DNA of 64,000 nucleotides from an uncultured Candidatus Rokubacteria bacterium (GTDB taxonomy: Bacteria > Methylomirabilota > Methylomirabilia > Rokubacteriales > CSP1-6). This document shows positions 14,100 through 14,851 of the stretch, in pieces. The notes beneath the pieces were generated by a model. That model was not told where the DNA came from, searched no databases, and saw only the letters and a list, made by a program, of their open reading frames with translations. Position 1 is the stretch's first letter. Every line of letters begins with the position of its first letter. The position numbers and the translations under genes were made by a program. The stretch covers positions 282,423-346,422 of the forward strand of contig CAVYTA010000007.1 of assembly GCA_963771355.1 (NCBI GenBank). The letters are read 5' to 3'.

Positions 14100-14115
14100 T
14101 GGCACACGACTTGCT
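14100..14115 (+). promoter_or_regulatory. Sigma-54 (RpoN) promoter, TGGCAC-N5-TTGCT
   Basis: Exact -24/-12 consensus, TGGCACacgacTTGCT, 41 nt upstream of the PEP-CTERM gene ATG. An AGAGGAG SD follows. Coordinates are +/-1. Confidence 0.55.
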
Positions 14116-14155
14116 CTTCTCTTGGTAAGACGTCCATTTTCAGAGGAGCGCACAC

Positions 14156-14851
14156 ATGAGGATTACCAAGGTAATAGTCGGCGGGGCCCTCGGTCTCGCC
14201 TTGCTGGCGGGGGCTCTTTCGAGCCCGGCGGCCGCGGTCCCCCTCGTCTTGACGTTCGAGGGATTGCAGAACACCGAAGACGTGAACGCATTCTACAACG
14301 GCGGGACGGGAAGCCTCGGGAGCGGTCCCGGAACCAATTTCGGGATCCAGTTCAGCAACGCCGTCGCGTTCATCGATAGCGATGCGGGGGGGACGGGCAA
14401 TTTCGGCGGCGAGCCCTCGCCCTCGACGGCAATCACGTTCCTCGGCGCCAGCGCGACCACCATGAACGTCGCGGCGGGATTCGACACCGGGTTTTCGTTC
14501 TTCTACTCGGCGATCGCCGCCCCCGGGGTGGTGCGAGTCTGGAGCGATCTGGATGGGACCGGCACTCTGCTGGTCGAGCTGGATCTGGCGCTCACGCCGT
14601 TCCAAGGCGCGCCGGATCCGACCGGCGCCTTCAGCCCGTTCCTCCCCTTTGGCGTGACCTTCGATGGGATCGCCCGCTCCGTGGACTTTTCCGGGTCGTC
14701 CAACCAGATCGGGTTCGACAACATCACGCTCGGCTCCGAGCGCCCCATCGGCGCGGCCCAAGCGGTCCCCGAACCTGGTAGCCTCCTCCTCCTGGCTGCG
14801 GGCCTCGCCGGGGTCGGACTCCTCGCCAGGCTGAGGGCGTTCTGTAAATAA
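14156..14851 (+). CDS. Secreted Gly/Ser/Thr-rich protein with C-terminal PEP-CTERM sorting signal (exosortase substrate)
   Basis: 231 aa. N-terminal signal peptide (IVGGALGLALLAGALSSPAAA). C-terminus VPEPGSLLLLAAGLAGVGLLARLRAFCK is a VPEP motif followed by a TM helix and an Arg cluster. GGAG SD before the ATG. Confidence 0.8.
   Translation: MRITKVIVGGALGLALLAGALSSPAAAVPLVLTFEGLQNTEDVNAFYNGGTGSLGSGPGTNFGIQFSNAVAFIDSDAGGTGNFGGEPSPSTAITFLGASATTMNVAAGFDTGFSFFYSAIAAPGVVRVWSDLDGTGTLLVELDLALTPFQGAPDPTGAFSPFLPFGVTFDGIARSVDFSGSSNQIGFDNITLGSERPIGAAQAVPEPGSLLLLAAGLAGVGLLARLRAFCK

Follow-up and report, generated by a model that had tools for sequence, protein, structure and literature searches.

A PEP-CTERM gene with its own sigma-54 promoter adjoins the type IV pilus genes of a Rokubacterial lineage

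The window analysed here is a 64,000-nucleotide (nt) stretch, with a G+C content of 71%, from a contig of an uncultured Candidatus Rokubacteria bacterium. It contains a gene for a 231-amino-acid (aa) PEP-CTERM protein, here called the PEP gene and the PEP protein, which is placed in an MSHA-like type IVa pilus cluster, with regulatory genes on one side and the minor-pilin operon on the other (Table 1). The PEP gene has its own sigma-54 promoter and is followed by a hairpin, and the minor-pilin operon downstream has a separate promoter. The unusual feature of the locus is the presence of a PEP-CTERM gene inside a type IV pilus (T4P) cluster in one uncultured soil lineage, the Rokubacteria of the phylum Methylomirabilota. 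A preliminary description of this DNA placed the PEP gene between a pilin gene and minor-pilin genes. The minor pilins are indeed encoded downstream, but the direct upstream neighbour is the gene for a 130-aa membrane protein (x130), and the major pilin gene lies 8 kb upstream.

The preliminary description also reported that the 231-aa open reading frame (ORF) ends in a PEP-CTERM sorting signal and proposed that the C-terminus be compared with hidden Markov models. When this was done, the tail scored above the cut-offs of both Pfam PF07589 (23.6 bits, cut-off 20.7) and TIGR02595 (19.4 bits, cut-off 16), over residues 203-226. The last 29 residues, AVPEPGSLLLLAAGLAGVGLLARLRAFCK, consist of a VPEP motif, a helix and an RLR tail. 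The N-terminus, MRITK-VIVGGALGLALLAGAL-SSPAAA/VP, reads directly as a Sec-type signal peptide, and the structure model has a helix at residues 2-20. The mature protein, a predicted beta-sandwich of the jelly-roll type, has 175 aa, a mass of 17.7 kDa and an acidic pI of 4.05. Gly, Ser and Thr together make up 34% of it, in line with its earlier description as rich in these residues, and it contains no Lys, His or Cys. An identical PEP protein, with an intact coding sequence, was found on 22 metagenomic contigs from several samples, one of which is 1.15 Mb long.

Homology searches with the PEP protein returned more than 1520 close matches, with identities of about 55-65% to proteins of Cyanobacteria, Verrucomicrobia, Planctomycetes, Acidobacteria, Nitrospirae and Alpha-, Gamma- and Deltaproteobacteria; for the family as a whole, identity between phyla is about 55-70%. 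Family membership was confirmed at 143 genome loci (numbered with the prefix L below), and when the mature domain was searched against 1.84 billion cluster representatives, 1347 clusters (50% identity) were returned at E <= 0.001. Plasmid-borne homologues were searched for and none was found. Most members are stand-alone proteins of 215-270 aa, and some are adhesin-like surface proteins of 400-1800 aa in which the module is joined to HYR, PKD, FG-GAP, VWA, Ig-like, CARDB or fn3 domains. The residues that are invariant across the family include the loop D-x-D-A-G-G-x-G-N-x-G-x-E-P-S-P, to which D74, D76 and E86 belong. PF07589 was matched by 23 of 29 sampled members, and no Pfam domain besides the tail was found in any of the 29. 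The NCBIfam PEP-CTERM subfamilies (QFxxD, EDSAP-1, THxN, FxDxF, XDP1, PepA and others) all scored below cut-off, the best being NF038120 (29.8 bits, cut-off 80), and their matches were confined to the C-terminal region of the PEP protein (at most residues 165-227). The family is a large, strongly conserved extracellular module that occurs in at least eight phyla and has no Pfam or NCBIfam model. The fold of the PEP protein resembles those of DUF4465/BtuJ and of the carbohydrate-binding modules (CBMs) CBM29, CBM6 and CBM35, with sequence identities of only 8-17%, and the protein has no Pfam match to DUF4465 or to any CBM. We infer that the module acts outside the cell as a putative binder of a glycan or another matrix ligand.

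In L042 and L072, the loci of Scytonema hofmanni UTEX 2349 and of Tolypothrix brevis, a gene for cyanoexosortase A (at 10745-11626 and 10703-11584) lies directly downstream of the family member (319 and 326 bits against TIGR03763, cut-off 150). This adjacency supports the view that the family is true exosortase cargo. A weaker exosortase-like ORF was observed at 8496-9383 of L068, a metagenome-assembled genome of Elainellales, 1.9 kb downstream of the family member there.

An exact TGGCAC-N5-TTGCT element upstream of the PEP gene, at the right distance for a sigma-54 promoter, had been pointed out in the preliminary description. This element, TGGCACACGACTTGCT, proved to be the sole match to TGGCAC-N5-TTGCW on both strands of the 64 kb, where 0.04 matches are expected from shuffles. 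Its distance to the start codon, 28-41 nt, is kept in the Rokubacterial loci L010, L007, L014, L012 and L069. Across the family we counted near-consensus sites, defined as GG-N10-GC plus at least six of the seven other positions within 300 nt upstream of a member. Such sites precede 14 of the 83 non-identical family loci, compared with about 1% of random windows. When the other genes of the same loci served as the control and the Rokubacteria were left out, the counts were 6/70 against 4/716 (p = 6e-5). These comparisons suggest that the sigma-54 promoter is a trait of the PEP-protein family and not of the pilus.

Most PEP-CTERM genes were described as scattered single-gene operons that are not clustered with the exosortase gene (Haft 2006, BMC Biol 4:29, PMC1569441). 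The same study defined a PEP-CTERM box, in which a 17-nt motif 1 with TTTACA at its end is separated by 62.8 +/- 10.6 nt from a sigma-54 motif 2, with 32-92 nt from motif 1 to motif 2 and 23-221 nt between motif 2 and the start codon. The box was found in Proteobacteria only, and its distribution across genomes matches that of PrsR, PrsK and PrsT (PMC1569441). As is well established, sigma-54 promoters strictly need an activator (PMC1569441), and in Aquincola the dependence of PEP-CTERM genes on RpoN has been demonstrated by experiment (PMC9850573). The sigma-54 element of the window's PEP gene ends 40 nt before the ATG and so agrees with motif 2 of the box. Motif-1-like 17-mers were judged by the TTTACA-ending pattern and by spacing. 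On this basis, a motif-1-like 17-mer was found upstream of the -24 element in six proteobacterial loci (L033, L059, L064, L080, L084 and L088) and also in five Rokubacterial loci, with a spacer across all eleven of 60-65 nt, 74 nt in one. Two of the Rokubacterial loci have an exact TTTACA 17-mer (L014, GGTCGCCCCCCTTTACA, spacer 61; L069, CGCTGGGGACCTTTACA, spacer 62), and L010, L007 and L012 have variants of motif 1 with spacers of 60-62 nt. The control frequency of an exact TTTACA in the motif-1 slot was 0.36%.

Alignment of the window with L010 and L007 (alignment A6) revealed an 83-nt deletion in the window (found in the comparison of the region 14016-14099) that takes out exactly the motif-1-like segment. 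The spacing is identical in six independent assemblies, short-read ones included, and the deletion is therefore taken as real. Since the enhancer segment is deleted, activation of the PEP gene in the window strain would have to proceed through another site or another activator, or be weak.

Further conserved elements flank the PEP gene. The palindromic element upstream of its promoter is kept in the Rokubacterial loci of alignment A2, with one substitution in L010 (A6), and the window and each Rokubacterial locus have a single copy of it. The L014 version is a perfect 10-bp inverted repeat. This palindrome could be a terminator of the x130 gene or the binding site of a regulator. The hairpin past the PEP gene was seen only by comparison of loci: across six loci 94.8% of the alignment cells are paired and four pairs show compensatory changes, a result reached by 0 of 500 shuffles. 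It is a probable terminator or attenuator. A simple terminator and sigma-70 promoter scan of 13400-16200 found nothing, the folding energy of the 14852-14958 spacer was unexceptional (z = -0.08), and no Rfam families or tRNAs were found in the region or the window.

Sigma-54-like promoters were also found before the pilus genes. The sequence xGGCAC-N5-TTTGCT stands at the same place before the first minor pilin in L007, L010, L011, L014 and L069. Before the major pilin gene, GGCA and TTGCT are invariant in alignment A3, 80-89 nt from the pilin start codon. Nine sites in the window score at least 5/7 for sigma-54, and only the PEP, minor-pilin and major-pilin sites are intergenic; intergenic DNA makes up about 7.4% of the window. 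By sequence, the pilus genes are thus predicted to be sigma-54 dependent as well. The three promoters would share a sigma factor, and nothing shows a common activator: no common enhancer was seen among them, and their conserved upstream sequences differ. A further site, GTAGTCCCTTATTTACA at 14843-14859 (-), overlaps the PEP stop codon and shows the motif-1 pattern with one mismatch, 57 nt before the minor-pilin sigma-54 element. It is probably a chance occurrence, because it is not kept in relatives and a window should contain about one such match.

Table 1. Features of the window (positions in the 64,000-nt stretch) and, in the last three rows, of loci in which a family member lies near type II secretion system (T2SS) genes (positions in those loci).
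Feature	Position	Strand	Basis or remark
PEP gene (231-aa PEP-CTERM protein)	14156-14851	+	ORF call and PEP-CTERM models
PEP-gene sigma-54 promoter (-24 TGGCAC, -12 TTGCT)	14100-14115	+	exact consensus match, conserved position
PEP-gene ribosome-binding site GAGGAG	14143-14148	+	read from sequence
PEP protein signal peptide, residues 1-27	14156-14236	+	read from sequence
PEP protein mature beta-sandwich, residues 28-202	14237-14761	+	
PEP-CTERM tail, residues 203-231	14762-14848	+	
Conserved non-coding palindromic element TTTCTGCGCGGAAG-N4-TCTCGACGG	13978-14005	+	just past stop of 130-aa gene
GC-rich conserved hairpin	14881-14906	+	past PEP-gene stop codon; weak U-tract
Sigma-54-like promoter GGGGAC-N5-TTTGCT, minor-pilin/pilus-assembly operon	14917-14932	+	conserved in five loci
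Sigma-54-like promoter GGGCAT-N5-CTTGCT, major pilin gene	5918-5933	+	five-locus alignment A3
PilT	2-1102		
8-TM (transmembrane)+TPR protein 1	1103-2935		
Major type IV pilin, 166 aa, GFTLVELLIV N-terminus	6014-6514	+	TIGR02532 27.6 bits (cut-off 16.3), Pfam N_methyl
8-TM+TPR protein 2	6593-8560		
8-TM+TPR protein 3	8668-10659	-	
Receiver protein	10707-11090		
CHASE2-adenylate cyclase	11544-13514	-	
130-aa membrane protein (x130)	13564-13956		no family match
Three minor-pilin-type genes: 158 aa (PilV-like), 213 aa (N_methyl), 702 aa (PilX_N)	14959-18181	+	
Pilus assembly genes, MSHA-like order	18299-28021	+	
Histidine kinase	28017-29489	+	
NtrC-type sigma-54 activator	~29517-30890	+	receiver, AAA+ (GAFTGA), Fis-type helix-turn-helix domains
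Family member and T2SS region, L039	7931-10783		
Family member and T2SS region, L079	6606-9286		
Family member and T2SS region, L067	3647-10780		

The local regulators and other candidate partners were compared with the published PEP-CTERM regulatory system. The sigma-54 activator that the preliminary description had noticed in the locus has receiver, AAA+ and Fis-type helix-turn-helix domains (Table 1). It scored 426.6 bits against the PrsR model TIGR02915 and failed the cut-off of 502.6, and it is no better as PrsR than as AtoC (446.5) or NtrC (426.5). For PrsK we required at least 300 bits against TIGR02916, including the N-terminal membrane domain; the local kinase reached 91.9 bits, with its catalytic C-terminus only. 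The three TPR proteins scored 25-37 bits against the PrsT model TIGR02917 (cut-off 312). The kinase and activator are a candidate pilus regulator and are not demonstrably PrsK and PrsR. The statement that no exosortase is encoded in the window was also confirmed, by family scans of all polytopic ORFs and by a negative tblastn search of the window with CrtA. Of the six polytopic membrane ORFs, three encode the 8-TM+TPR proteins, and the others encode PilC, a UbiA-family enzyme and a Na/Pi transporter. A literature search for exosortases in Rokubacteria or Methylomirabilota yielded nothing relevant.

All six diverged Rokubacterial loci retain the arrangement x130, PEP gene, minor pilins, pilMNOPQ. 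Pilus linkage was absent from about 70 loci of other phyla, and all-versus-all clustering of 873 flanking ORFs revealed no neighbour conserved across phyla. Among the loci compared, linkage of the PEP gene to pilus genes thus appears to be confined to Rokubacteria. The labels of two syntenic contigs, Nitrosocosmicus and Verrucomicrobiia, probably stem from mis-binning, judging from the shared gene order. In three Xanthomonadales-like loci, the family member is oriented divergently to gspE-gspF and lies close upstream of them, at about 0.2-0.3 kb from the T2SS operon in L039 and L079 and about 2.5 kb in L067, which also has a gene for a GspG-like pseudopilin. By our estimate, such adjacency in two lineages of about 40 is compatible with chance. 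The Rokubacterial proteins in the slot beside the pilus genes share 54-85% identity among themselves, compared with 64-73% to members in other phyla. In a neighbour-joining bootstrap analysis all seven were monophyletic in 1 of 300 replicates and the deep nodes had no support, so the tree permits no conclusion on replacement of the slot gene by different family members.

Collectively, these results make it probable that the PEP gene is a canonical single-gene PEP-CTERM-box unit that adjoins the T4P cluster and is not part of the pilus machine. The protein would be exported by Sec and held in the inner membrane by its C-terminal helix, where an exosortase encoded elsewhere in the genome would cleave it at the PEP motif. 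It would then reach the cell surface or the exopolysaccharide layer, and its module would bind a glycan or another matrix ligand. Transcription of the gene would need RpoN and an enhancer-binding protein, and in the sister lineages a PrsR-type activator is expected at the TTTACA-ending 17-mer about 61 nt upstream of the -24 element. The stable place of the gene beside the Rokubacterial pilus genes would most simply reflect inherited gene order among sigma-54-dependent surface or biofilm genes.

The preliminary description had regarded co-regulation of the PEP gene with T4P genes as unusual. This view was not supported, as a sigma-54-dependent single-gene PEP-CTERM unit is the published norm, and the promoter is the expected signature of PEP-CTERM genes rather than a sign of pilus co-regulation. 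In addition, the orthologues carry the published enhancer, the pilin promoters have different upstream sequences, the gene has a hairpin of its own, the local kinase and activator fail the PrsK and PrsR thresholds, and the pilus linkage is seen in one lineage only. The case for unusual co-regulation of the PEP gene with the pilus is thus a weak one. The three separately conserved sigma-54 promoters and the natural enhancer deletion offer a simple comparison for soil metatranscriptomes.

Several observations weigh against a self-contained PEP-CTERM-box unit. Motif 1 is absent upstream of the PEP gene in the window, and no exosortase, PrsR, PrsK or PrsT was shown within the 64 kb. The hairpin has no clear U-tract, so that read-through from the PEP gene into the pilin operon is possible. 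The likeness of the mature module to CBMs and DUF4465 is generic, at 13-16% identity. The pilus synteny persists to about 55% secretin identity and could reflect selection rather than inertia. P205 and P207 of the PEP motif are kept among orthologues, but two syntenic orthologues have another residue in place of E206 (P0016, VPLP; P0021, VPVP), and the tails of both fall below the PEP-CTERM and VPLPA-CTERM cut-offs. This loss of Glu is a caveat for exosortase dependence in the Rokubacterial lineage.

The absence of motif 1 could mean that the promoter of the window strain has lost its enhancer and that the PEP gene is poorly expressed, or not at all, despite perfect -24 and -12 elements. We regard this as possible, if somewhat unlikely. 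The deletion of exactly the motif-1-like 17-mer, with the same spacing in six assemblies, is consistent with such a loss, given the strict need of sigma-54 promoters for an activator (PMC1569441). However, the coding sequence is intact and identical on the 22 contigs, activators can act from distant or alternative sites, and the reverse-orientation motif-1-like site over the stop codon is present, perhaps by chance.

The conserved gene order bears on a different proposal, in which the PEP protein is coupled to the pilus as a surface lectin or matrix anchor, with the three sigma-54 promoters under the local kinase and activator. The protein would then act in pilus-dependent adhesion, aggregation or motility. 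The retention of the x130/PEP/minor-pilin/pilMNOPQ order in six diverged loci and the presence of three positionally conserved sigma-54 promoters and one GAFTGA activator in a single locus are in its favour, as is the finding that an exosortase and hormogonium PEP-CTERM proteins of Nostoc are needed for pilus-driven motility, in which they anchor polysaccharide (PMC12188702). We nevertheless consider both the coupling and these roles unlikely, because the conserved sequences upstream of the three promoters are unrelated, the orthologues use a PrsR-type box, the activator and kinase fall short of TIGR02915 and TIGR02916, and the roughly 70 loci of other phyla show no pilus linkage. It seems doubtful, more specifically, that a Rokubacterial exosortase cargo was recruited into the T4P regulon and works physically with the pilus as an anchor or as cargo of the secretin; beyond the conserved adjacency nothing specific points to such a partnership, for which the Nostoc system (PMC12188702) may serve as a precedent. 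The secretin-cargo option, if true, would identify the currently unknown outer-membrane route of PEP-CTERM proteins.

The tail variation and the lack of an exosortase gene in the 64 kb could instead indicate that this lineage has no exosortase sorting, and that the C-terminal helix simply anchors a periplasmic beta-sandwich in the inner membrane. The window has a single PEP-CTERM-like tail, and two syntenic orthologues have lost the Glu and fail the curated cut-offs. Against this, the window protein passes both PF07589 and TIGR02595, PEP-CTERM-box regulation is retained in the Rokubacterial lineage, and cyanoexosortase A adjoins family members elsewhere. Moreover, the exosortase EpsH was present in every species with PEP-CTERM domains, and the cargo genes were mostly scattered (Haft 2006, PMC1569441). 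We therefore hold an anchor of this kind to be improbable. It is very improbable that the pilus-like machine, with its secretin and pseudopilins, is a T2SS-like outer-membrane exit for the processed PEP protein: the cluster's ExeA/GspA-like ATPase is the nearest relative of the XrtA/PEP-CTERM system-associated ATPase (TIGR03015) but scores 262.5 bits against a cut-off of 324.5, the proximity of family members to gspE-gspF in L039, L067 and L079 is at chance level and most members have no such neighbour, and, although no exit route is known for such proteins according to PMC12188702, the major pilin, PilT (455 bits, cut-off 319) and the PilQ-type secretin mark the cluster as a real type IVa pilus.

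The pilus assembly genes encode PilM, two proteins without an assigned family, a secretin of the PilQ type, an AAA_22 protein that resembles ExeA/MshM and has a peptidoglycan-binding domain, an ATPase of TPR+MshEN+PilB/GspE composition and the platform protein PilC/GspF. PilB, GspE and PilQ are slightly under the NCBIfam equivalog cut-offs, and the Pfam models T2SSE, Secretin and T2SSF were strongly passed. The assembly ATPase (24448-26754) has an N-terminal TPR region and an MshE-type domain that binds cyclic di-GMP (NF053729, 53 bits, cut-off 38), which suggests control of piliation by cyclic di-GMP. The 8-TM+TPR proteins, which the preliminary description had called GT-C transferases, matched only TPR models, and their N-terminal domains had no PDB sequence match at E <= 1, which leaves the GT-C label without sequence support. 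The earlier suggestion that these neighbours might glycosylate the PEP protein is speculative. The CHASE2-adenylate cyclase gene is broken across two frames in the window, and L007 has an intact gene of 600 aa. The break is probably a long-read indel error; similar gene breaks were found in other genes on sister contigs.

Elsewhere in the window, the region 42056-45198 encodes a decaprenyl-phosphate phosphoribosyltransferase (NF008977, 276 bits, cut-off 234) followed by a fused DprE1-like/DprE2-like oxidoreductase. This gene pair looks like a pathway for a D-arabinofuranose donor. In Pseudomonas aeruginosa, TfpW arabinosylates the group IV pilins. The arabinofuranose genes, together with a major pilin flanked by the three 8-TM+TPR proteins, resemble this TfpW system, a likeness that we offer as a lead only. 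The DNA polymerase I gene (53473-57758) is broken up into a pair of overlapping ORFs that differ in frame, and a LAGLIDADG_3 domain at the start of the second ORF falls between the two DNA_pol_A halves. An inserted intein or homing endonuclease could account for this, as could a frameshift in the assembly. The stretches 31800-34200 and 36600-38650 have a weaker coding signal, with a G+C content at third codon positions of 0.64-0.83. The longest ORFs there, 33127-33939(-) and 37187-38647(-), had no Pfam match, and no RNA family or tRNA match was obtained in these stretches.

The locus can be compared with several known systems. PilS/PilR-RpoN control of pilin genes and MSHA-type clusters are found in Pseudomonas, Myxococcus, Geobacter and Vibrio. 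As in PilS/PilR control, a sigma-54 promoter precedes the pilin gene and an NtrC-type activator and a kinase are encoded in the cluster. The order PilM...secretin-MshM-TPR/MshE-PilC matches mshI-L-M-N-E-G of MSHA-type clusters, and the ATPase carries MshEN. PilS/PilR and MSHA systems are not known to include a PEP-CTERM gene that separates the regulators from the minor pilins. Nostoc punctiforme, with its hormogonium PEP-CTERM proteins and its cyanoexosortase B (PMC12188702), offers a likeness of another kind, as a precedent for exosortase cargo that aids pilus-driven behaviour through polysaccharide adhesion. There, however, the link is physiological and not one of genomic adjacency, and seven proteins are involved.

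Among individual PEP-CTERM proteins, ZepA (PMC10957091) is likewise a single-domain exoprotein of similar size (mature about 27 kDa, compared with about 18 kDa here) whose sequence identity stays high between distant phyla, among them Cyanobacteria, Proteobacteria, Nitrospirota and the PVC group. Identity of the PEP protein with ZepA was considered and rejected: ZepA is defined by an H-X2-9-H-F/Y-H zinc site and the PEP protein contains no histidine, so it belongs to another family. PepA of Zoogloea and Aquincola (PMC9850573) is also a small secreted PEP-CTERM protein with a sigma-54 promoter. This flocculation protein is RpoN-dependent and is proposed to hold exopolysaccharide at the cell surface (PMC9850573). 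The PEP protein is not a member of its sequence family (NF033554, E = 2.2, 8 bits, cut-off 80), and a comparable function is here only inferred.

The closest correspondence is with the PEP-CTERM-box substrates of Haft 2006. The PEP gene differs from these in its host, Rokubacteria/Methylomirabilota instead of Proteobacteria, in the loss of motif 1 from the window copy, and in its location in a pilus locus and not an exopolysaccharide locus, with PrsK, PrsR, PrsT and an exosortase not identified in the window. It shares with them the signal peptide, the tail of PEP motif, helix and basic residues, the single-gene unit, the long upstream region and the sigma-54 element, and its orthologues have the TTTACA 17-mer about 61 nt upstream, close to the published mean spacer of 62.8 nt. 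The combination of enhancer and sigma-54 site in Rokubacteria/Methylomirabilota extends the range of a site first described only in Proteobacteria, and from it a PrsR-type activator and an exosortase system are to be expected in this lineage.

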